A stretch of 64,000 bases of DNA from Escherichia coli (GTDB lineage Bacteria > Pseudomonadota > Gammaproteobacteria > Enterobacterales > Enterobacteriaceae): assembly GCF_003019035.1 (NCBI RefSeq), contig NZ_CP027447.1, one strand, 5' to 3'. Below are positions 31,351 to 45,874 of the stretch, piece by piece; the stretch's first letter is position 1; every line of letters begins with the position of its first letter. The notes under the pieces were generated by a model, which was not told where the DNA came from, ran no database searches, and saw nothing but the letters and a program-made list of their open reading frames with translations. Both the position numbers and the translations under genes were made by a program.

Positions 31351-33024
31351 TCAGGAGAGATATTCCGCCACCGGACCAAGCGCCAGGGCAGGGATAAAGG
31401 TCAGTGCGCCAACCAGCAACACGGTGCCGATTAACAGGCCAACAAACAGCGGGCCGTGCGTTGGCAATGTGCCGGAGCTGGCGGGTTGGCTCTTTTTACT
31501 CACCAGCGAACCGGCAATTGCCATCACCGGGATAATCACCCCGAAGCGCCCGACAAACATGCACAACGCCAGTAAACAGTTCCAGAATGGAGAGTTGGCG
31601 CTTAATCCGGCAAAGGCGCTGCCGTTGTTGTTAGCGGCGGATGACACGGCGTACAGCACTTCGCTAAAACCATGCGGGCCAGGGTTGAGCATGGCGCTAC
31701 GTCCGGCGTCGGTCATCATTGCCAGCGCCGCGCCCATCAGCACCAGCGTCGGGGTGACCAGAATCGCCAGTGCAGTCAGTTTCATCTCGCGTACGTCGAT
31801 TTTTTTACCCAGATATTCCGGTGTACGACCAATCATCAGCCCGGCAATAAACACCGCCAGCAGGACAAACAGCATCATGCCGTAAAGGCCGGAACCGACG
31901 CCGCCGAATACCACTTCACCAATTTGCATCAACCACATCGGCACCATGCCACCAAGAGCGGTAAACGAATCATGCATCGCAATCACCGCGCCGCAGGAAG
32001 CCGCCGTAGTCACGACCGCAAACAGGCTACTGACCAGCACGCCGAAACGGCTCTCTTTACCTTCCATATTGATGCTGCTGTCCGCGCCGAGCGCCAGCAG
32101 ATGAGGATTACCCTGAACTTCTGCCCACATCACTACGCCTACGCAGATGACAAAAATCACCGACATCGCCCACAGCAACATGCGCCCCTGGCGACGATCG
32201 CCCGCCACTTCACCAAAGGCAAAGCACAGCGCTGTTGGGATCAAGAAAATCGCCAGCATTTGCACGAAGTTGGTCAGTGCGGTTGGGTTTTCAAACGGAT
32301 GCGACGAGTTGGCATTAAAGAAGCCACCGCCGTTAGTACCGAGCATCTTGATCGCTTCCTGAGAAGCTACTGGCCCCATTGGTAACAGCTGTTGCGCTCC
32401 TTCAATGGTCGTCACAGCCTGATAAGGCTGAAAGTTTTGCAGTGCACCTTGTTGAATAAAAAACAGTGCGATCAACAATGCCACAGGGGCTAACACCCAT
32501 AACGTGATGCGTAGCAGATCGACCCAGGCATTACCGAGCGTGCTCATGCTCTGGCGGGTAAACGCACGGATGAGGGCAAAAATCACCGCAATCCCGCTGG
32601 CGGCAGAAAGAAAGTTTTGCACCGTTAAGCCCGCCATCTGGCTGAAATAGCTCAACGTGGTTTCACCGCTATAAGATTGCCAGTTGGTATTCGTGACAAA
32701 GCTGACGGCGGTATTGAGCGCCAGATCCCACGACAGCCCCGGCAACTGCTGTGGATTAAGCGGCAAATAGTGCTGACCGAGCAACATAAAAAACAGCACC
32801 GCCAGCCCCAGCATATTCAGGCCAAGAATGGCTGAGAGATACTGCTTCCAGTTCATCTCGCGGTCAGAGACGCCAAGCGCGCTAAAGAGTACGCGTTCAA
32901 CGCCCGTCGTACCAGGAAGAGGAATATCATTAATCAGCCGCGCCAGCCCGCTGCCTAAAGGACGTGCCAGCACCATTAACACCAGTAAAAACGTGGCGAT
33001 CAGTAAGAACCCTTGCGCAGCCAT
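31351..33024 (-). CDS. kdpA: K+-transporting ATPase subunit A
   Basis: 557 aa from [16 protein letters not shown]; track ORF begins at an upstream ATG, trimmed. Confidence 0.9.
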
Positions 33025-33101
33025 CAGAACGCCTCCGCATTGATCAGGGCATAAACCAGATAACCCAGTAATAAAAACACCAGCAACACGCCTGCACTCA
33101 C
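33024..33101 (-). CDS. kdpF: kdpF-like small hydrophobic peptide, 25 codons, GTG start
   Basis: Own translation (V/M)[29 protein letters not shown] 6 nt upstream of GTG; stop overlaps the kdpA start. Confidence 0.5.
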
Positions 33102-33173
33102 AGTGCACCTCCAGTGGCCGAAAAGTGATATCGGAAGGGTAGAATTCTGGCTGCAAAGATTTCGCAAAAATCT

Positions 33174-33203
33174 GCGGGCGGGGTGTAAAAAAAGTATAAA
33201 AAT
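33174..33203 (-). promoter_or_regulatory. KdpE operator of the kdpFABC promoter
   Basis: Minus strand reads CATTTTTATACTTTTTTTACACCCCGCCCG, matching the KdpE-protected site as I recall it. Confidence 0.65.
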
Positions 33204-33413
33204 GGCAAAAGCCATGATTTAACTGATGGTTAGTATTAATTTAACTTTTGTGTAACTTAATTACAGTGTGAATGTAAATAAACCATCAATAAGCAAAAAT
33301 AAGTGGTCGGATGAGTAGTAAAATTACACAAAAGGCGGTACTATTTTCATCAGATAAACAAATTCATTTTTCCGGTGCCATTCACCGGGTAGATACAACA
33401 GGGGGAGAAAAGT

Positions 33414-33620
33414 ATGGAACTTTACAGAGAATATCCTGCATGGCTTATCTTTTTACGCCGTACTTATGCGGTTGCAGCGGGCGTTCTGGCGCTGCCTTTC
33501 ATGCTTTTCTGGAAAGACCGCGCCCGCTTTTACAGCTACCTGCACCGCGTCTGGTCGAAAACCAGCGAGAAACCGGTGTGGATGGATCAGGCCGAAAAGG
33601 CAACTGGTGATTTTTACTGA
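33414..33620 (+). CDS. ybfA: DUF2517 small protein
   Basis: 68 aa [20 protein letters not shown]... Confidence 0.8.
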
Positions 33621-33642
33621 TTGCTGAGTTCTGAATACATTG

Positions 33643-33675
33643 AAAACCGCCAGCGGAAACGCTGGCGGTTTTTTT
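33643..33675 (+). terminator. ybfA terminator
   Basis: AAAACCGCCAGCG-GAAA-CGCTGGCGGTTTTTTT. Confidence 0.7.
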
Positions 33676-33863
33676 GTATCAGGAAGATGTTCAGAGGAAT
33701 ATTTAGACACCGTTATACCAATCGAAACATATATTCATAAAACATATATAAATATTTTCCTAATTGTTTCTATCTGACGGATATCTCACTTAAGGCTTTC
33801 TTATAAATCTGTAGGGTTTCGCCTGTCAGCAGACAAATAACCCGATAAAACAAGGATGAGCAG

Positions 33864-36800
33864 ATGAGCGGAAAACCGGCGGCGCGTCAGGGCGACATGA
33901 CGCAGTATGGCGGTAGCATTGTTCAGGGTTCAGCCGGGGTACGTATTGGTGCTCCCACCGGCGTGGCCTGTTCGGTGTGCCCCGGCGGGGTGACGTCCGG
34001 CCATCCGGTCAATCCGCTGCTCGGTGCGAAGGTCCTTCCCGGCGAAACCGACCTTGCCCTGCCCGGCCCGCTGCCGTTCATCCTCTCCCGCACCTACAGC
34101 AGTTACCGGACAAAAACGCCCGCGCCGGTGGGGAGCCTCGGCCCCGGCTGGAAAATGCCCGCGGATATCCGCTTACAGCTGCGCGATAACACACTGATAC
34201 TCAGTGATAACGGCGGCAGGAGCCTGTATTTTGAGCACCTGTTTCCCGGTGAGGACGGTTACAGCCGCAGCGAGTCACTCTGGCTGGTGCGCGGCGGCGT
34301 GGCGAAACTGGATGAAGGTCACCGGCTGGCCGCACTCTGGCAGGCGCTGCCGGAAGAGCTTCGCCTGAGTCCGCATCGTTATCTGGCGACGAACAGTCCG
34401 CAGGGGCCGTGGTGGGTACTCGGCTGGTGTGAGCAGGTGCCGGAGGCGGATGAGGTGCTGCCCGCGCCGCTGCCGCCGTACCGGGTACTGACCGGGCTGG
34501 TGGACCGCTTCGGGCGCACACAGACGTTTCACCGTGAGGCTGGCGGTGAATTCAGCGGCGAAATCACCGGCGTGACGGATGGTGCCGGGCGTCACTTCCG
34601 GCTGGTACTGACCACGCAGGCGCTGCGGGCAGAAGAGGCCCGGCAGCAGGCCATTTCCGGCGGGACGGAACCGTCCGCTTTTCCTGATACCCTGCCGGAC
34701 TACACGGAATATGGCCGGGACAACGGCATCCGCCTGTCCGCCGTGTGGCTGACGCACGACCCGGAATATCCGGACAACCTGCCAGCCGCGCCGCTGGTAC
34801 GCTATGGCTGGACGCCACGCGGCGAACTGGCGGCGGTGTATGACCGCAGCGGCACACAGGTGCGCAGCTTTACTTACGATGATAAATACCGGGGCCGGAT
34901 GGTGGCGCACCGTCACACGGGCCGGCCGGAAATCCGTTACCGTTACGACAGCGACGGGCGGGTGACAGAACAGCTAAACCCGGCAGGCTTAAGCTACACG
35001 TATCAGTATGAGAAAGACCGCATCACCATCACCGACAGCCTGGACCGCCGTGAAGTCCTGCACACGCAGGGCGAAGGCGGGCTGAAGCGGGTGGTGAAAA
35101 AGGAACACGCGGACGGCAGCGTCACGCAGAGTCAGTTTGACGCGGTGGGCAGGCTTAAGGCACAGACGGATGCCGCAGGCCGGACGACTGAGTACAGCCC
35201 GGATGTGGTGACGGGACTCATCACGCGCATCACCACGCCGGATGGCAGGGCATCGGCGTTTTACTATAACCACCACAGCCAGTTAACGTCAGCCACCTGG
35301 CCTGACGGGCTGGAAATACGCCGGGAATATGATGAATCCGGCCGTCTGATTCAGGAAACCGCCCCTGACGGCGATATCACCCGCTACCGTTATGATAATC
35401 CACACAGTGACTTCCCCTGCGCAACGGAGGATGCCACCGGCAGCCGGAAAACCATGACGTGGAGCCGTTACGGTCAGTTGCTGACCTTCACCGACTGTTC
35501 CGGCTACCAGACCCGTTATGACCATGACCGCTTCGGGCAGATGACGGCGGTGCACCGCGAGGAAGGCCTGAGCCAGTGCCGCGCATACGACAGCCGTGGA
35601 CAGTTAATTGCGGTGAAAGACACGCAGGGCCATGAAACGCGGTATGAATACAACGCCGCCGGTGACCTGACCGCCGTCATTGCCCCGGACGGCAGCAGAA
35701 ACGGGGCACAGTACGATGCGTGGGGAAAGGCCGTCCGTACCACGCAGGGCGGGCTGACCCGCAGTATGGAATACGATGCTGCAGGACGGGTCATCCGCCT
35801 GACAAACGAAAACGGCAGCCACACCACCTTCCGTTACGATGTACTCGACCGGCTGATACAGGAAACCGGCTTTGACGGCCGCACACAGCGTTACCACCAC
35901 GACCTGACCGGCAAACTTATCCGCAGCGAGGATGAGGGGCTGGTCACCCACTGGCACTATGACGAAGCAGACCGCCTCACGCAGCGCACCGTGAATGGCG
36001 AAACCGCAGAGCGGTGGCAGTATGACGAACGCGGCTGGCTGACAGGCATCAGCCATCTCAGCGAAGGGCACCGGGTGACGGTGCATTACAGGTATGATGA
36101 GAAAGGCCGCCTGACCGGTGAGCGCCAGACGGTGCATCACCCGCAGACGGAAGCACTGCTCTGGCAGCATGAAACCAGACATGCGTACAATGCGCAGGGG
36201 CTGGCGAACCGCTGTATACCGGACAGCCTGCCCGCCGTGGAATGGCTGACTTATGGCAGTGGTTACCTGGCAGGGATGAAGCTGGGTGACTCGCCCCTGG
36301 TGGAGTACACCCGCGACCGCCTGCACCGGGAAACGCTGCGCAGCTTCGGCCGTTATGAACTCACCACCGCTTATACCCCTGCCGGGCAGTTACAGAGCCA
36401 GCACCTGAACAGCCTGCAGTATGACCGCGATTACACCTGGAACGACAACGGCGAACTCATTCGCATCAGCAGCCCGCGCCAGACCCGGAGTTACAGCTAC
36501 AGCGACTCCGGCAGGCTGACCGGCGTTCACACCACCGCAGCGAACCTGGATATCCGCATCCCGTATGCCACGGACCCGGCAGGTAACCGCCTGCCCGACC
36601 CGGAGCTGCACCCGGACAGCACCCTCAGCATGTGGCCGGATAACCGTATCGCCCGTGACGCGCACTATCTTTACCGGTATGACCGTCACGGCAGGCTGAC
36701 GGAGAAAACCGACCTCATCCCGGAAGGGGTTATCCGCACGGATGATGAGCGGACTCACCGGTACCATTACGACAGCCGGCACCGGCTGGTGCACTACACG

Positions 36801-38063
36801 CGGACACAATATGCAGAGCCGCTGGTCGAAAGTCGCTATCTTTACGACCCGCTGGGCCGCAGGGTGGCAAAACGGGTGTGGCGGCGTGAACGGGACCTGA
36901 CGGGCTGGATGTCGCTGTCACGGAAACCGGAAGTGACCTGGTACGGCTGGGACGGCGACCGGCTGACCACGATACAGAACGACAGAACCCGCATCCAGAC
37001 GATTTATCAGCCGGGGAGCTTCACGCCACTCATCAGGGTCGAAACTGCCACCGGTGAGCTGGCGAAAACGCAGCGCCGCAGCCTGGCGGATGCGCTTCAG
37101 CAGTCCGGCGGCGAAAACGGTGGCAGTGTGGTGTTCCCGCCGGTGCTGGTGCAGATGCTCGACCGGCTGGAAAGTGAAATCCTGGCTGACCGGGTGAGTG
37201 AGGAAAGCCGCCGCTGGCTGGCATCGTGCGGCCTGACGGTGGCGCAGATGCAAAACCAGATGGACCCGGTGTACACACCGGCGCGAAAAATCCACCTGTA
37301 CCACTGCGACCATCGCGGCCTGCCGCTGGCGCTTGTCAGCACGGAAGGGGCAACAGAATGGTGCGCAGAATACGATGAGTGGGGCAACCTGCTGAATGAA
37401 GAGAACCCGCACCAGCTGCAGCAGCTCATCCGCCTGCCGGGTCAGCAGTATGATGAGGAGTCCGGCCTGTATTACAACCGCCACCGCTATTATGACCCGC
37501 TGCAGGGGCGGTATATCACTCAGGATCCTATTGGGCTGAAGGGGGGATGGAATTTTTATCAGTATCCGTTGAATCCGGTTCAGTATATAGATTCAATGGG
37601 ACTGGCATCAAAATATGGACACTTAAATAATGGCGGATATGGAGCGAGACCCAACAAACCGCCTACGCCCGATCCAAGTAAATTGCCAGACATAGCGAAA
37701 CAATTAAGACTGCCATATCCTATTGACCAGGCCAGTAGTGCGCCTAATGTTTTCAAAACATTCTTCAGAGCATTAAGCCCTTACGACTACACACTGTATT
37801 GCAGGAAGTGGGTAAAACCAAATCTGACTTGTACGCCACAGGATGATCCCCAGTATCCAGGGATGGATACAAAGACAGCAAGTGATTACCTGCCACAGAC
37901 AAATTGGCCAACAACTCAATTACCACCAGGATATACTTGTGCAGAACCCTATTTATTCCCAGACATTAATAAACCCGATGGGCCAGCAACAGCAGGGATA
38001 GATGATTTGGGTGAAATTTTAGCTAAAATGAAACAGAGAACATCGAGAGGAATAAGAAAATGA
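33864..38063 (+). CDS. rhsC: Rhs-family polymorphic toxin (N-terminal PAAR-like region, YD-repeat shell, DPIGL core end, ~175-aa variable C-terminal tip)
   Basis: 1399 aa; PAARQGD motif at residues 5-11; GC-rich repeat core; DPIGL at 37523-37537; sharp GC drop after it; located after ybfA as rhsC is in K-12. Confidence 0.9.
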
Positions 38064-38629
38064 AAAGAATTTTGTTCTTTTTGCTGATGATATTTGTTAG
38101 TTTTGGTGTTATAGCTGATTGCGAAACACAAGCTAAAGATCAAGATTGCTTTACCATTTTCACTAAGGGTACTATTTTTTCCGCGTTTCCTGTCTTAAAT
38201 AATAAAACCATATGGAGATGGTATCAGAATGAGGACATAGGTGAGTATTATTGGCAAACAGAACTTGGTATATGTAAAAATAACAAATTCACACCAAGCG
38301 GGGCGAGACTCTTAATTCGCGTCGGATCACTACGCCTTAATGAAAATCATGCAACCAAAGGAACGTTGCAGGAGTTGCTAAATACAGCAGAAAAAACGGC
38401 GTTTCTCGGCGATCGGTTTAGAAGTTATATAAGAGCGGGTATCTATCAAAAAAAGAGCAGTGATCCAGCTCAGTTGTTGGCAGTCCTTGATAATTCAATC
38501 ATGGTTAAATATTTTAAAGATGAGAAGCCAACTTATGCTCGAATGACAGCACATCTCCCGAACAAAGATGAGTCTTACGAATGTTTAACAAAAGTACAGC
38601 ATGAACTGCTTCGTAGTGAAGAAAAATAA
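38060..38629 (+). CDS. predicted cognate immunity protein of the Rhs tip (signal-peptide bearing)
   Basis: 189 aa; start overlaps the rhs stop (ATGA); N-terminal [19 protein letters not shown] hydrophobic signal; AT-rich like the toxin tip. Confidence 0.55.
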
Positions 38630-38797
38630 AATCTCTTCCTGAGAAAATAAATTAACTATTCGAAAAAATATGTTCTTAATGGGTATCCAGGTACACCAGA
38701 AGGTCGATTTGGAAAAATGGATTCCGATGGTAAGAATATCATATATTCTGAATGTAATGTTTTACCCACAACTTTTGAGATTCGATAGGTGTAGAGC

Positions 38798-39100
38798 ATG
38801 AGAAACTCACTAATATTACTTATTATGATATTGTTTACAATATCACACTCAGTATTTGGAAAAGAAAATTCAGTGGAAATTTTAGTAAATAGTCGTGAAA
38901 TGGCTTTGGAATTATCATATGTTTACATTAAATATGTATACGGGAAAGAAAAAGCAGAATTTCAGAAACCATATAGTATTACAGATGACAATAATTGTTG
39001 GAAAATCGAGGGAAAACAACCGAAGACGTTAGGAGGAAATTTTACAATACTAATAGCGAAAAAAGATGGGCAAGTGTTGAATGTAATACACACAAAATAA
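38798..39100 (+). CDS. small secreted protein, likely orphan immunity protein
   Basis: 100 aa with signal peptide MRNSLILLIMILFTISHSVFG; AT-rich; lies directly after a start-less toxin-tip-like reading frame (38651-38788). Confidence 0.45.
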   Translation: MRNSLILLIMILFTISHSVFGKENSVEILVNSREMALELSYVYIKYVYGKEKAEFQKPYSITDDNNCWKIEGKQPKTLGGNFTILIAKKDGQVLNVIHTK

Positions 39101-39279
39101 TCCACTGTACAGTCGATTCAAATATTTTACCAAGGTGTGTTTTGTAACAATTTTGTGTACAATATGACTCTACATATCGACGAAAAAACCACTTGATTTG
39201 ACAGGAACACATTCAAAAAAATTTCTTTATTCATTTCAGGAGCGATTTTCATCTGTTACTTGAAGTATCTGTGAGATTA

Positions 39280-39645
39280 AGTGACTCCCCCTAACGTCGT
39301 ACTAAATAGTAATTACTGTCCATACCGGGAGCAGTATTCGGCGCTCCCCACATGCAGCAGAATAACCGCATCAGCGAAGATGTATTGTATTTTTACTATC
39401 ACAATGTGTACGGACGGTTTATGGAAAAGAATGAAAATTAGATACGCGATGGGGCGGCAGGTTACACGGTTATCACTACGATAGCCAATACTGGCTGGTG
39501 CATTACCGCCGTGAACAATAGGACGCCGTACTGCTGGAAATTTCTTACCTTTATGACTCCCCGCGCCGCCGTATTGGGAAACGGGAAGCAATCAAGATGA
39601 GGCTGATATAATGTGCGGAATGCCTGAGTATTTTTAGAATAGGGG
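39280..39645 (+). pseudogene. decayed fragment of a divergent Rhs core
   Basis: GC-rich island in an AT-rich stretch; frames read YHYDSQYWLVHYRREQ* and LYDSPRRRIGKRE, resembling the core segment [12 protein letters not shown]...[12 protein letters not shown] of the intact rhs, with stops and frameshifts. Confidence 0.5.
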
Positions 39646-39651
39646 GGTAAT

Positions 39652-40053
39652 ATGTTTGATAGAATATATCTTGGTGATCGAGCAATAAAAAAAATTGAAT
39701 TTTATTTATGGACTAAACAAATTAGAATTCAGGTTAATTTAATCTCAAGGATAGCCTATGGTACAACAGAATGGAATTTTTATGATAATGAAGACTTAGA
39801 AGATGGTTATTTGGTATTTTCAGATGTTAGTTTCTTCAATATAACTCCTAATGGCTCTATTCCTGATGATTATATAATTTCAATAATTACAGATAATGTC
39901 AATGTTGAATATTTTGAATCAACTATAGTTGCAGTTGGACAAATTCCAAATACAAATTCTGGAGACATTGATAATATTGGTGAGTGTCAAATTTTCATCA
40001 GGTATAAACACAGCTGGATTGAGAATAAATTCAAAGAAAAAATAATTGAATAA
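39652..40053 (+). CDS. hypothetical cytoplasmic protein, possible orphan immunity protein
   Basis: 133 aa; GGGGGG Shine-Dalgarno; very AT-rich; sits immediately after the decayed Rhs fragment. Confidence 0.45.
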   Translation: MFDRIYLGDRAIKKIEFYLWTKQIRIQVNLISRIAYGTTEWNFYDNEDLEDGYLVFSDVSFFNITPNGSIPDDYIISIITDNVNVEYFESTIVAVGQIPNTNSGDIDNIGECQIFIRYKHSWIENKFKEKIIE

Positions 40054-40145
40054 CCATGTTATGTATAGACATTTTAGATGGAACGAACCAGAGGAAGGCA
40101 TGCCTCCGACTTGGGTTATATGGGCACGGAGTTTTAGTGTAGTGA

Positions 40146-40400
40146 ACTCAACGACGCAAACCGAATAACCTGCCGCTGGCGCTTATCAGCACGGAAGGGG
40201 CAACAGAATGGTGCGCAGAATACGATGAATGGGGCAACCTGCTGAATGAAGAGAACCCGCACCAGCTGCAGCAGCTCATCCGCCTGCCGGGTCAGCAGTA
40301 TGATGAGGAGTCCGGCCTGTATTACAACCGCCACCGCTATTATGACCCGCTGCAGGGGCCAGGGAAAGATCACGTAACGCTGCTTTTTTGTACTAAATAA
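40146..40400 (+). pseudogene. start-less orphan Rhs core-end fragment with alternative 13-aa tip
   Basis: 40170-40358 is nearly identical to 37319-37507 of the intact rhs ([63 protein letters not shown]), then diverges to [13 protein letters not shown]; in-frame stop at 40143 and no start codon. Confidence 0.7.
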
Positions 40401-40503
40401 TTCGCATTTTATGTTTAAAAATTGAGATATTCCTCATTACCTAAAGCTGTTTTTCATTGCTTATACATGATCAAATACTCCTTACATAATTAAGGAGAAC
40501 AAA

Positions 40504-41352
40504 ATGGAACTTAAAAAATTGATGGAGCATATTTCTATTATCCCAGATTACAGACAAGCCTGGAAAGTGGAACATAAATTGTCTGATATTCTACTGTTGA
40601 CTATTTGTGACGTTATTTCTGGTGCAGAAGGTTGGGAAGATATAGAGGATTTTGGGGAAACACATCTCGATTTTTTAAAACAATATGGTGATTTTGAAAA
40701 TGGTATTCCTGTTCACGATACCATTGCCAGAGTTGTATCCTGTATCAGTCCTGCAAAATTTCACGAGTGCTTTATTAACTGGATGCGTGACTGCCATTCT
40801 TCAGATGATAAAGACGTCATTGCAATTGATGGAAAAACGCTCCGGCACTCTTATGACAAGAGTCGCCGCAAGGGAGCGATTCATGTCATTAGTGCGTTCT
40901 CAACAATGCACAGTCTGGTCATCGGACAGATCAAGACGGATGAGAAATCCAATGAGATCACAGCTATCCCGGAACTTCTTAACATGCTGAATATTAAAGG
41001 AAAAATCATCACAACTGATGCGATGGGTTGCCAGAAAGATATTGCAGAGAAGATACAAAAACAGGGCGGTGATTATTTATTCGCTGTAAAAGGAAACCAG
41101 GGGCGGCTAAATAAAGCCTTCGAGGAAAAATTTCCGCTGAAAGAATTAAATAATCCAGAGCATGGCAGTTACGCAATGAGTGAAAAGAGTCACGGCAGAG
41201 AAGAAATCCGTCTTCATATTGTTTGCGATGTCCCTGATGAACTTATTGATTTCACGTTTGAATGGAAAGGGCAGCCATGGACAGAAAATATCTGGCGTCA
41301 GTCCTTGCGGGGAGCGTGCTTTCGTAATTTTGCCCTGCTACAACAGGATTAA
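40504..41352 (+). mobile_element. ybfD: H-repeat-associated (ISAs1-family) transposase gene, internally deleted derivative (ybfD-like)
   Basis: 282-aa [35 protein letters not shown]... running into an out-of-frame tail; a 16-codon frame (41277-41327, [16 protein letters not shown]) that I recall as the C-terminus of full-length H-repeat proteins lies in another frame. Confidence 0.7.
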
Positions 41353-41412
41353 CTTCACAAACATCATTTGCCAACGTCTACACTTACTCCTGTTAATATC
41401 TCAGGAGCAGTA

Positions 41413-41922
41413 ATGAATCAGCAACGATTTGATGAAAGCACTCTAATCCGTATCTTCGCGCTTTATGAGTTACATCGACTGAAAGAACATGGCTTAACGC
41501 GCGGGGCACTCAACGATTATCACAGCCGCTATAAACTCGTCTTTCTGGCCCATTCCCAGTCCGAGTACCGCAAACTTGGCCCGTTTGTGGCTGATATTCA
41601 CCAGTGGCAAAATCTGGATGACTATTACAACCAGTACCGCCAACGCGTAATTGTTTTGCTTTCTCACCCTGCCAACCGGCGTGATCATACTAACGTTTTG
41701 ATGCACGTTCAGGGTTATTTTCGCCCTCATATTGATTCCACAGAACGCCAGCAGCTGGCTGCGCTTATCGACAGTTATCGCCGTGGCGAGCAACCACTTC
41801 TTGCGCCGCTGATGCGTATCAAACACTATATGGCGCTTTATCCTGACGCCTGGCTTTCAGTGCAGCGTTATTTCGAACTTTGGCCGTGTGTGATTAACTT
41901 GCGCCATTCAGGAGTTTTATGA
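41413..41922 (+). CDS. ybgA: DUF1722 protein co-transcribed with photolyase
   Basis: 169 aa from MNQQRFDESTLIRIF; AGGAG Shine-Dalgarno; stop overlaps the phr start. Confidence 0.85.
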   Translation: MNQQRFDESTLIRIFALYELHRLKEHGLTRGALNDYHSRYKLVFLAHSQSEYRKLGPFVADIHQWQNLDDYYNQYRQRVIVLLSHPANRRDHTNVLMHVQGYFRPHIDSTERQQLAALIDSYRRGEQPLLAPLMRIKHYMALYPDAWLSVQRYFELWPCVINLRHSGVL

Positions 41923-43337
41923 CTACCCATCTGGTCTGGTTTCGCCAGGATTTACGTCAGCACGATAATCTCGCGCTGGCTGCCGCCTGCCGCAATTCGT
42001 CTGCGCGCGTGCTGGCGTTGTATATCGCTACACCACGCCAGTGGGCGGCGCATAACATGTCGCCGCGTCAGGCTGAACTTATCAATGCTCAACTGAATGG
42101 GCTACAAATCGCGCTGGCGGAAAAAGGCATTCCTTTGCTGTTTCATGAAGTGGATGACTTTGCCGCCAGCGTCGAAATAGTTAAACAGGTGTGCGCGGAA
42201 AATCGTGTTACCCATCTGTTTTATAACTATCAGTATGAGGTGAATGAGCGGGCGCGGGATGTGCAGGCTGAGAGGGCGCTGCGTAACGTGGTGTGTGAAG
42301 GATTTGACGACGGCGTGATCCTGCCGCCGGGGGCGGTGATGACTGGCAATCATGAGATGTACAAAGTCTTTACGCCATTTAAAAACGCCTGGCTTAAACG
42401 GCTGCGAGAAGGGATGTCGGAGTGCGTCGCTGCGCCAAAAGTACGTAGTAGCGGATCGATAGATCCCGCGCCATCCATTACGCTGAATTATCCTCGTCAG
42501 CCTTTCGATACTGCGCATTTCCCGGTGGAAGAGAAAGCGGCGATTGCGCAATTACGCCAGTTTTGCCAGAACGGTGCCGGAGAGTATGAGCAACAGCGAG
42601 ATTTCCCTGCGGTAGAAGGCACCAGCCGTTTGTCCGCCAGCCTGGCAACGGGCGGGTTATCGCCTCGCCAGTGTTTGCATCGCCTGTTGGCGGAACAGCC
42701 GCAGGCGCTGGACGGTGGGGCCGGTAGTATCTGGCTTAATGAGCTGATCTGGCGCGAGTTTTACCGTCATCTGATAACGTATTACCCCTCGCTGTGTAAA
42801 CATCGTCCGTTTATTGTCTGGACCGACCGCGTGCAGTGGCAGAGCAATTCCGCGCATTTAAAGGCCTGGCAGGAAGGCAAAACGGGATACCCGATTGTTG
42901 ATGCTGCCATGCGTCAGCTTAACAGCACTGGCTGGATGCATAACCGGCTACGGATGATTACAGCCAGTTTTTTGGTGAAAGATTTATTGATCGACTGGCG
43001 CGAAGGTGAGCGATATTTCATGTCGCAGCTGATTGATGGTGATTTGGCAGCCAATAACGGTGGCTGGCAGTGGGCCGCTTCAACCGGAACCGATGCAGCG
43101 CCGTATTTTCGTATTTTTAACCCGACAACCCAGGGCGAGAAATTTGACCGCGAAGGCGAGTTTATCCGCCAGTGGCTACCGGAACTGCGCGATGTGCCAG
43201 GGAAAGTGGTGCATGAGCCGTGGAAGTGGGCGCAGAAAGCAGGTGTGACGCTGGATTATCCGCAACCGATAGTTGATCACAAAGAGGCAAGGCTGCGAAC
43301 GCTGGCAGCGTACGAAGAAGCGAGGAAAGGAGCCTGA
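41919..43337 (+). CDS. phr: deoxyribodipyrimidine photolyase
   Basis: 472 aa; photolyase N-terminal and FAD-binding domains (WREFY, GWMHNRLRM motifs). Confidence 0.95.
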   Translation: MTTHLVWFRQDLRQHDNLALAAACRNSSARVLALYIATPRQWAAHNMSPRQAELINAQLNGLQIALAEKGIPLLFHEVDDFAASVEIVKQVCAENRVTHLFYNYQYEVNERARDVQAERALRNVVCEGFDDGVILPPGAVMTGNHEMYKVFTPFKNAWLKRLREGMSECVAAPKVRSSGSIDPAPSITLNYPRQPFDTAHFPVEEKAAIAQLRQFCQNGAGEYEQQRDFPAVEGTSRLSASLATGGLSPRQCLHRLLAEQPQALDGGAGSIWLNELIWREFYRHLITYYPSLCKHRPFIVWTDRVQWQSNSAHLKAWQEGKTGYPIVDAAMRQLNSTGWMHNRLRMITASFLVKDLLIDWREGERYFMSQLIDGDLAANNGGWQWAASTGTDAAPYFRIFNPTTQGEKFDREGEFIRQWLPELRDVPGKVVHEPWKWAQKAGVTLDYPQPIVDHKEARLRTLAAYEEARKGA

Positions 43338-43378
43338 TAAAACGCAGCGAGCGTTTTATCAGGTATGGTGCTGGCCTA

Positions 43379-45043
<1,665 letters not shown>

Positions 45044-45130
45044 TTAATATGTCAAAAGATTGGCTATCGACGAACAGGCGAGGTAACGCTATGTTAACGG
45101 TGTAGCTATCAGAATACGGAAGGCGCGAAG

Positions 45131-45874
45131 ATGAAAAACACCGAACTGGAACAACTGATTAACGAAAAACTGAACAGCGCGGCGATTAGTGATTATGCGC
45201 CGAATGGTTTGCAGGTGGAAGGCAAAGAGACGGTGCAAAAAATTGTTACCGGTGTCACCGCCAGCCAGGCTTTGCTCGATGAAGCGGTGCGTCTGGGCGC
45301 GGATGCGGTCATTGTGCATCATGGCTACTTCTGGAAAGGTGAATCTCCGGTCATTCGCGGAATGAAGCGTAACCGTTTAAAAACGTTGCTGGCGAATGAT
45401 ATCAACCTGTATGGCTGGCATCTGCCCCTGGACGCGCATCCGGAGCTGGGTAATAACGCACAACTGGCGGCGTTACTGGGGATCACGGTCATGGGCGAAA
45501 TTGAGCCGTTGGTGCCGTGGGGCGAACTGACCATGCCTGTGCCGGGACTGGAACTGGCCTCCTGGATTGAAGCGCGTCTGGGACGTAAGCCGTTATGGTG
45601 TGGCGATACCGGACCTGAGGTGGTCCAGCGCGTTGCCTGGTGCACGGGCGGCGGGCAAAGTTTTATCGATAGCGCCGCGCGTTTTGGCGTGGATGCTTTT
45701 ATTACTGGCGAAGTTTCTGAACAGACCATTCATTCAGCCCGCGAGCAGGGATTGCATTTTTATGCTGCGGGTCACCATGCCACTGAACGTGGTGGTATTC
45801 GCGCGTTGAGCGAGTGGCTGAATGAAAATACCGATCTTGATGTGACCTTTATTGATATTCCTAATCCTGCATAA
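45131..45874 (+). CDS. ybgI: Nif3-family metal-binding protein
   Basis: 247 aa. Confidence 0.85.
   Translation: MKNTELEQLINEKLNSAAISDYAPNGLQVEGKETVQKIVTGVTASQALLDEAVRLGADAVIVHHGYFWKGESPVIRGMKRNRLKTLLANDINLYGWHLPLDAHPELGNNAQLAALLGITVMGEIEPLVPWGELTMPVPGLELASWIEARLGRKPLWCGDTGPEVVQRVAWCTGGGQSFIDSAARFGVDAFITGEVSEQTIHSAREQGLHFYAAGHHATERGGIRALSEWLNENTDLDVTFIDIPNPA

Follow-up and report, generated by a model that had tools for sequence, protein, structure and literature searches.

A truncated Tox-JAB-2 tip and an intact Imm-NTF2-2 gene, very likely a displaced Rhs module, in the rhsC array of Escherichia coli

Genes and features of the locus

The window, that is, the whole stretch of 64,000 nucleotides analyzed here (Escherichia coli, contig NZ_CP027447.1), contains the E. 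coli rhsC locus (kdp-ybfA ... ybgA-phr-dtpD). Its array begins with a main Rhs gene and a ybfC-type gene, and the tip of the former together with ybfC is 95% identical to K-12 ybfO-ybfC. The features found from there on are collected in Table 1. When positions 32601-45300 are compared with E. coli SCU-301 (L001), the identity is 99.78% over 12.7 kb (17 mismatches, 9 gaps); the main rhs gene of SCU-301 is frameshifted according to RefSeq, whereas in the window it is a single uninterrupted ORF. The ybfC-type protein matched no Pfam or NCBIfam family, and a search of 38000-40600 against Rfam gave no match at E<=1 on either strand.

The frame at 38651-38788 (plus strand) is open throughout its 45 codons, which read INYSKKYVLNGYPGTPEGRFGKMDSDGKNIIYSECNVLPTTFEIR, and is closed by TAG. 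On the 5' side it is shut by the TAA at 38648-38650. No in-frame ATG, GTG, or TTG precedes an internal ATG at 38717-38719, from which a product of only 23 aa would be made. An earlier note made on this DNA had described an open frame without a start at this place, and the sequence and the list of ORFs agree; the 46 residues that it counted are in fact 45 and the stop. Its observation that the stop falls 9 bp ahead of the ATG of a 100-aa ORF was likewise accurate, since the stop ends at 38788, the ATG begins at 38798, and the gap between them is GTGTAGAGC. RefSeq carries no annotation for the start-less frame. Two ORFs overlapping it, one antisense (38656-38799, 47 aa) and one out of frame (38670-38801, 43 aa), were treated as chance.

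Further downstream, a core remnant, strongly diverged and carrying an in-frame stop, lies 68 bp 5' of the DUF6258 gene, which always accompanies the module formed by the start-less frame and the 100-aa gene. From its sequence, the segment 39352-40053 looks like a second beheaded module, with a deletion running from the middle of the core to the end of the toxin. The next core fragment is interrupted from ~40360 by an ISAs1/H-repeat element, whose transposase has 282 aa as against 378 aa in the intact copies beside a complete toxin module (L003/L004). This core fragment and positions 37319-37509 form direct repeats of 191 bp, 99% identical and 2.66 kb apart. Were the two copies to recombine, the attached tip, ybfC, and both orphan genes would be lost.

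Table 1. Features of the array, in window coordinates.
Feature	Position	Strand	Evidence and remarks
Main Rhs gene, 1399 aa, head of the array	33864-38063	+	Pfam DUF6531, RHS_repeat, RHS; YbfO-type tip
ybfC-type gene, 189 aa, presumed immunity gene of the attached tip	38060-38629	+	Position; signal-like N-terminus
ybfC 3' flank, common to K-12	38630-38650	+	K-12 alignment; ends in TAA 38648-38650
Recombination junction, ATTAA microhomology	38651-38655	.	Present in the K-12 ybfC flank and inside the intact toxin gene
Tox-JAB-2 (DUF4329) Rhs toxin tip remnant	38651-38788	+	Last 45 codons and TAG; without start, without catalytic motif
SD-like AGGTG	38787-38791	+	Sequence; 6 nt 5' of the immunity-gene ATG
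Imm-NTF2-2 immunity gene, 100 aa, intact	38798-39100	+	Pfam PF15631; homology to the gene 3' of the intact toxin
Predicted Sec signal sequence, residues 1-21, MRNSLILLIMILFTISHSVFG	38798-38860	+	n/h/c layout, conservation, AF2
3' flank travelling with the module, 119 bp	39101-39219	+	blastn; common to intact toxin/immunity loci
Degenerate Rhs core remnant with stop codon	39352-39584	+	tblastn with main Rhs residues 923-1004, 39-55% identity, E=3e-10
DUF6258 gene, 133 aa, third small gene, presumed further orphan immunity gene	39652-40053	+	Pfam PF19772, E=1.4e-24
Rhs core fragment, 191 bp	40169-40359	+	Self-blastn, 99% identical to 37319-37509; tblastn
ISAs1/H-repeat transposase ORF, truncated	40504-41352		Pfam DDE transposase

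Family membership of the two reading frames

The 100-aa protein, whose gene product RefSeq names 'NTF2 fold immunity protein', matches the Pfam family Imm-NTF2-2 (PF15631) over the whole profile (positions 1-68/68) with E=2e-20 and 73.1 bits for a cut-off of 26. Our search of this family gathered 288 cluster representatives at E<=1e-3. Conserved Y and W residues have been given as its signature (Zhang et al., 2012; PMC3482391). In an alignment of 33 sequences, P58, G72, GG79-80, and G91 do not vary and Y48, W68, and H98 hardly do. The window protein has all of them, as well as G49, which also ranks with Y48, P58, W68, GG79-80, and H98 among the positions nearly invariant in the family. It ends in HTK, in keeping with a C-terminal H-x-K/R that is itself nearly invariant. 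In the AF2 model (pLDDT 90.6), a helix (residues 2-19) is joined by a linker to a helix-on-sheet domain (residues 33-98), and this predicted structure resembles peptidase-inhibitor folds of the cystatin/PepSY type. A sequence search of the PDB with the protein returned zero matches, and the four proteins compared with NCBIfam matched none of its families. The closest immunity protein standing beside an intact toxin (P0008, 100 aa), found in two E. coli draft assemblies (L003 and L004), is 84% identical to that of the window.

A word-indexed protein search with the 45-residue remnant retrieved two tiny mis-called ORFs of the same locus and nothing else. As this direct search was uninformative, the partner toxin was reached through the neighbours of the immunity-gene homologues. 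In L003 and L004, the gene 5' of the immunity gene encodes a full-length Rhs protein, the C-terminus of which reads EEFSPADINYSKKHVLNGYLGTPEGRFGKMDFDGKNIIYSECNVLPTTFEIR before its stop. The remnant is 93% identical to it over all 45 residues (E=8e-28), and tblastn in the reverse direction gave E=7e-24. At the DNA level, homology with the intact toxin locus sets in at precisely 38651 and extends across the immunity gene as far as 39219, at ~91% (by blastn, L003 2134-2702 matches 38651-39219 with 90.7% identity), and the same 9-bp spacer separates the intact toxin from its immunity gene. The complete tip of the L003 type is a DUF4329 domain (Pfam, E=4e-33; 114 bits), named Tox-JAB-2 by Zhang et al. 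(2012; PMC3482391).

By itself, the remnant stays below the threshold of the DUF4329 HMM (12.2 bits for a cut-off of 28.6, E=0.18; profile positions 86-111/116). Its nucleotide sequence is ~91% identical to that of the 3' end of rhs genes with a DUF4329 tip, and we regard it as a piece descended from a member of the family, not itself a member. Of the ~160 residues of the tip 45 survive; in the AF2 model of the toxin domain they correspond to residues 117-161, that is, to the last helix and three strands. The catalytic signature (E, H[ST]H, S, D) is absent, the first residue of the remnant being the one after the D; in intact relatives the motifs REYAG, YHTHG, and FSPAD are all N-terminal of the breakpoint. 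Since the E/HTH/SxxD metal site lies wholly 5' of the breakpoint, the remnant cannot be active and must be inert. The end of a barnase-type RNase tip had also been considered as its identity and was dropped, because the Pfam and fold results lead to JAB/MPN.

The association between the two families is found well beyond this locus. At least six independent contexts show a homologue of the immunity gene directly 3' of a Tox-JAB-2 toxin, whether full-length or stand-alone: L003/L004, L009-L012 (immunity protein 86% identical to that of the window), L018/L019 (60%), L008 (54%), L021 (38%), which is a stand-alone DUF4329 pair, and RhsB/YhhH of K-12. The window gene, 9 bp 3' of a Tox-JAB-2 remnant, matches this downstream-of-toxin arrangement. 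Thus, both checks that the earlier note had proposed came out in its favour: the remnant is homologous to the extreme C-terminus of DUF4329/Tox-JAB-2 Rhs toxins, and the relatives of the 100-aa gene neighbour such toxins. Zhang et al. (2012; PMC3482391) listed Imm-NTF2-2, described from E. coli, as the partner that confers immunity to the Tox-JAB-2 of RHS proteins. The two families are the same here, the difference being that the toxin is represented by its last 45 residues only. The family was also given as 'E. coli only', whereas the representatives gathered in our search include the stand-alone pair at 38% identity. Some members have no recognisable toxin neighbour (L020, L022) and are found beside an MFS transporter or between OprD-type and TonB-dependent receptor genes.

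K-12 itself carries a pair of the same families, the tip of RhsB being DUF4329 (E=6.8e-40) and YhhH, which has a paralogue YbbC, being Imm-NTF2-2 (E=2.5e-26). Compared with the window-type pair, the toxin is 49% and the immunity protein 42% identical. In K-12, however, the core still bears an entire toxin, and no 9-bp spacer separates the two genes, since yhhH overlaps rhsB. A literature search on YhhH yielded nothing useful, and in the searchable literature we found no experiments on either Tox-JAB-2 or Imm-NTF2-2.

Export signal and site of action

The N-terminus of the 100-aa protein is laid out as MRN / SLILLIMILFTI / SHSVFG, followed by KENS, and AF2 renders the signal sequence as an isolated helix (residues 2-19). 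The sequence stays in frame in homologues that are 54-86% identical, one of which uses a TTG start. In this last case (L008), the TTG lies 12 bp past the toxin stop and the N-terminus reads MRSLTLSLSIYLILSQQIFA, followed by METQ. More broadly, 93 of 101 family representatives have a hydrophobic N-terminus by a Kyte-Doolittle hydropathy heuristic, lipoprotein-like motifs (SC or Cys) occur in many Imm-NTF2-2 representatives, and the N-terminus of K-12 YhhH is hydrophobic too. From this sequence pattern we take the signal sequence to be real, as the earlier note had stated. Because the hydrophobic N-terminal sequence is conserved across homologues, the immunity protein is very probably exported.

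RefSeq has the immunity gene start at GTG 38873, giving 75 aa and leaving the signal sequence out. We rejected this start since the 25 upstream codons are in frame and are hydrophobic in divergent homologues, including the one with TTG; in P0007, P0008, P0031, and L008, the codons 5' of the RefSeq start are in frame and hydrophobic. Across strains, the RefSeq/PGAP lengths are 75, 90, 66, and 75 aa (L001, L013, L014, and L015, respectively), none of which includes the signal sequence. As a consequence for annotation, the RefSeq starts drop a conserved signal and the remnant is missing.

The toxin's site of action is the one point on which the analysis suggests something beyond the searchable literature. 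Several papers repeat the label of a cytoplasmic RNase or nuclease for Tox-JAB-2, among them the one that suggested a nuclease role (PMC3482391), and one preprint states that the activity is unknown. An exported immunity protein argues instead for a periplasmic target in this clade, and suggests that Tox-JAB-2 toxins, including K-12 RhsB, are periplasmic rather than RNases. We tentatively consider, with a little less than even confidence, that the Tox-JAB-2 Rhs toxins of this clade may be periplasmic JAMM-type (iso)peptidases acting on an envelope substrate, for example a linkage in peptidoglycan or in a lipoprotein. Three observations point this way: the immunity proteins paired with these toxins have a conserved signal for export, the best structural matches of the AF2 model of the toxin tip are JAMM isopeptidases, and the immunity model has the peptidase-inhibitor resemblance described above. 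The alignment behind the toxin model is shallow (7 rows), because a word-indexed search with the full toxin tip gave 3 matches only, and the model is still usable; a PDB sequence search with the tip returned two chance antibody matches only (E 0.1-0.6). Counting against a generalisation, the immunity proteins of Salmonella Rhs-DUF4329 toxins are reported to be without signal peptides (PMC10469887). The ybfC-type protein (38060-38629) also opens with a signal-like sequence. Should it serve as immunity protein to the YbfO-type tip, the YbfO-type toxin may also act outside the cytoplasm.

Origin of the module and its fate across E. coli

The junction at the 5' edge of the remnant is sharp. From 38651 onward the sequence belongs to the inside of a tip, the 21 bp before it are ybfC flank, and no core-encoding sequence precedes the remnant. 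Homology with the K-12 ybfC flank is clear up to ~38656 (blastn carries a weak match on to 38671), and toxin homology begins at 38651; hence, the junction is placed at a 5-bp ATTAA microhomology. The same module with the same junction is present in ~844-852 of 5,426 complete E. coli genomes. As one junction is common to all carriers, it arose once. The block is also found behind the orphan ybfO of BL21 and at the nikR-side rhs locus of AR_0015.

This organization recalls the orphan immunity arrays of the Vibrio cholerae T6SS, for which homology-facilitated illegitimate recombination has been proposed as the cause (Kirchberger et al., 2017; PMC5361080). In these arrays, an incoming effector/immunity module replaces the effector while the old 3' end and immunity gene stay, as appears to be the case here: an intact immunity ORF follows the 3' end of a former effector and stands 3' of a different, complete effector/immunity pair. 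The ATTAA junction fits that model. The organism is different, Rhs proteins take the place of T6SS auxiliary-cluster effectors, and in E. coli most orphan copies carry a frame change. The module also resembles the Rhs tips described as displaced or orphan (Jackson et al., 2009, PMC2935791; Poole et al., 2011, PMC3150448; Koskiniemi et al., 2014, PMC3967940) in lying 3' of a full-length rhs/immunity pair, within an array made, like theirs, of dissociated tips, core fragments, and H-repeat/ISAs1 elements. However, classical orphans retain part of the core along with an entire tip, and homologous recombination can re-attach them. The window module has no core (up to the PxxxxDPxGL region) and its tip is incomplete, so that only the immunity half could still work. 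With no core before the remnant, the locus fits the illegitimate replacement of the Vibrio model (PMC5361080) rather than a displacement that retains the core (PMC2935791). All its parts fall in described categories, namely the toxin/immunity pair (Zhang et al., 2012), displaced tips (Jackson et al., 2009), and orphan immunity arrays (Kirchberger et al., 2017).

Taken for identity and history, the locus is thus very likely a displaced effector/immunity module of the Rhs type, in which the 5' two-thirds of the toxin domain are gone. The earlier note had proposed a toxin-tip/immunity module deprived of its 5' end, and the 93% identity of the remnant to an Rhs C-terminus and the Imm-NTF2-2 assignment of the ORF support it. 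Its word 'orphan' holds for an orphan immunity gene with the 3' remnant of a toxin and not for a classical rhs-CT/rhsI cassette that could be re-activated, since the module has no Rhs core fragment. As we reconstruct the events, an ancestral E. coli Rhs protein would have carried a Tox-JAB-2 tip (a metallo-hydrolase fold of the JAMM/MPN type), followed after 9 bp by an Imm-NTF2-2 gene. A single illegitimate recombination at ATTAA would then have fused the old tip, in its middle, to the 3' flank of an arriving YbfO-type tip/ybfC module, with loss of everything through the E...HTH...SxxD metal-binding motif; the direction of this event is deduced from present-day arrangements. The immunity gene has retained its ribosome-binding site, start codon, and signal sequence, and is intact in this strain.

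On the plus strand, a scan from ybfC to the ORF, including the remnant, found no promoter-like and no terminator-like site. An independent promoter for the immunity gene is therefore not supported, and read-through transcription from rhs-ybfC may be assumed. Exported by the Sec pathway, the protein would bind and block, in the periplasm, the Tox-JAB-2 domain of Rhs toxins of competitor E. coli.

Elsewhere in the species, three changes dominate among the carriers. Counted as matches to diagnostic 40-mers, in which every 28-base seed spans the variant site, and not as fully extracted alleles, they are the conversion of the start ATG to ACG (232 genomes, BL21 type), a nonsense change of codon 29 from TTA to TAA (310 genomes, O157:H7 type), and a 2-bp deletion in an ACACAC run (271 genomes), which replaces the HTK end by an 18-residue tail and brings the protein to 115 aa. 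Combined, they affect ~813 of ~850 carriers (~96%), and the window allele is among the remaining ~4%. Over 701 bp, four genomes are 100% and six are >=99% identical to the window. The 3' frameshift departs from the family norm, given the near invariance of H-x-K/R, and yet in this allele nearly all of the domain is preserved and function may persist, so that 96% is the most that could be counted as broken. In the 5,426 complete genomes, nothing matches the catalytic part of the L003-type toxin at more than 80% nucleotide identity; there are matches of ~65% only, to rhsB, in 2,603 genomes. The orphan would thus guard against a now-rare toxin and is decaying, the gene drifting toward a pseudogene across E. 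coli. Since frame changes are widespread in other lineages, selection for function is argued against. The earlier note's retained immunity factor is plausible for the intact allele of this strain only, because ~96% of the carriers have a changed one. Judged from sequence, the chances that the window allele can still protect are roughly even, and for this strain the best description of the gene is a relic that still looks functional, not a defence that is being maintained.

A rather less probable but serious alternative is that the module is wholly inert, neither part acting, with a gene that has not yet been disabled and hitch-hikes behind rhs-ybfC. The three independent frame changes, the absence of the cognate catalytic region, at more than 80% nucleotide identity, from the 5,426 complete genomes, and the lack of a promoter of the gene's own in the scan all favour it. 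Against it, the ORF, SD, and signal sequence of the window are intact, no terminator parts the gene from the upstream operon, and all three frequent changes leave the sequence coding for the NTF2-like domain untouched.

It is improbable that the remnant is kept for use, either as a source of expression signals for the immunity gene or as homology for re-attachment or exchange of tips. Orphan Rhs cassettes can reportedly be re-activated by recombination, and the 9-bp spacer and SD are identical to those of intact pairs; but no plus-strand promoter-like site was found within the remnant, the Rhs core sequence that re-activation uses is missing, and remnants in the population gather amino-acid changes, with frameshifts in L006. 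Still more improbable is a housekeeping or other role for a small periplasmic protein whose adjacency to the toxin remnant would be incidental. The size of the family and its distant members without a recognisable toxin (L020, L022) could be read in this way. However, every close relative examined (54-86% identical) and several distant ones (38-42%) stand immediately 3' of Tox-JAB-2, and the gene is dispensable, being disrupted in most carriers. A chance open frame beside an unrelated small ORF, which could appeal to the AT richness of the region (GC 0.29-0.33) and to nothing else, is already refuted by the matches to toxin C-termini (E=8e-28) and to Imm-NTF2-2 (E=2e-20), and its probability is negligible.

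Read as a displaced module, the locus offers a clean, datable case of orphan-immunity decay, with one junction, ~850 genomes, and three independent clade-level changes. Two carriers show further rearrangements. In E. coli AR_0015 (L013, 5431-9828), the block made of ybfC, toxin remnant, NTF2 gene, and DUF6258 gene continues into a longer array, which contains fragments with pentapeptide repeats, another NTF2-fold immunity gene that is frameshifted, yibA (a HEAT-repeat gene), and a piece of Rhs. An IS1 cuts the block short in strain 98224 (L016), after the first 178 bases of the 38630-39100 query, at ~38807, just inside the immunity gene.
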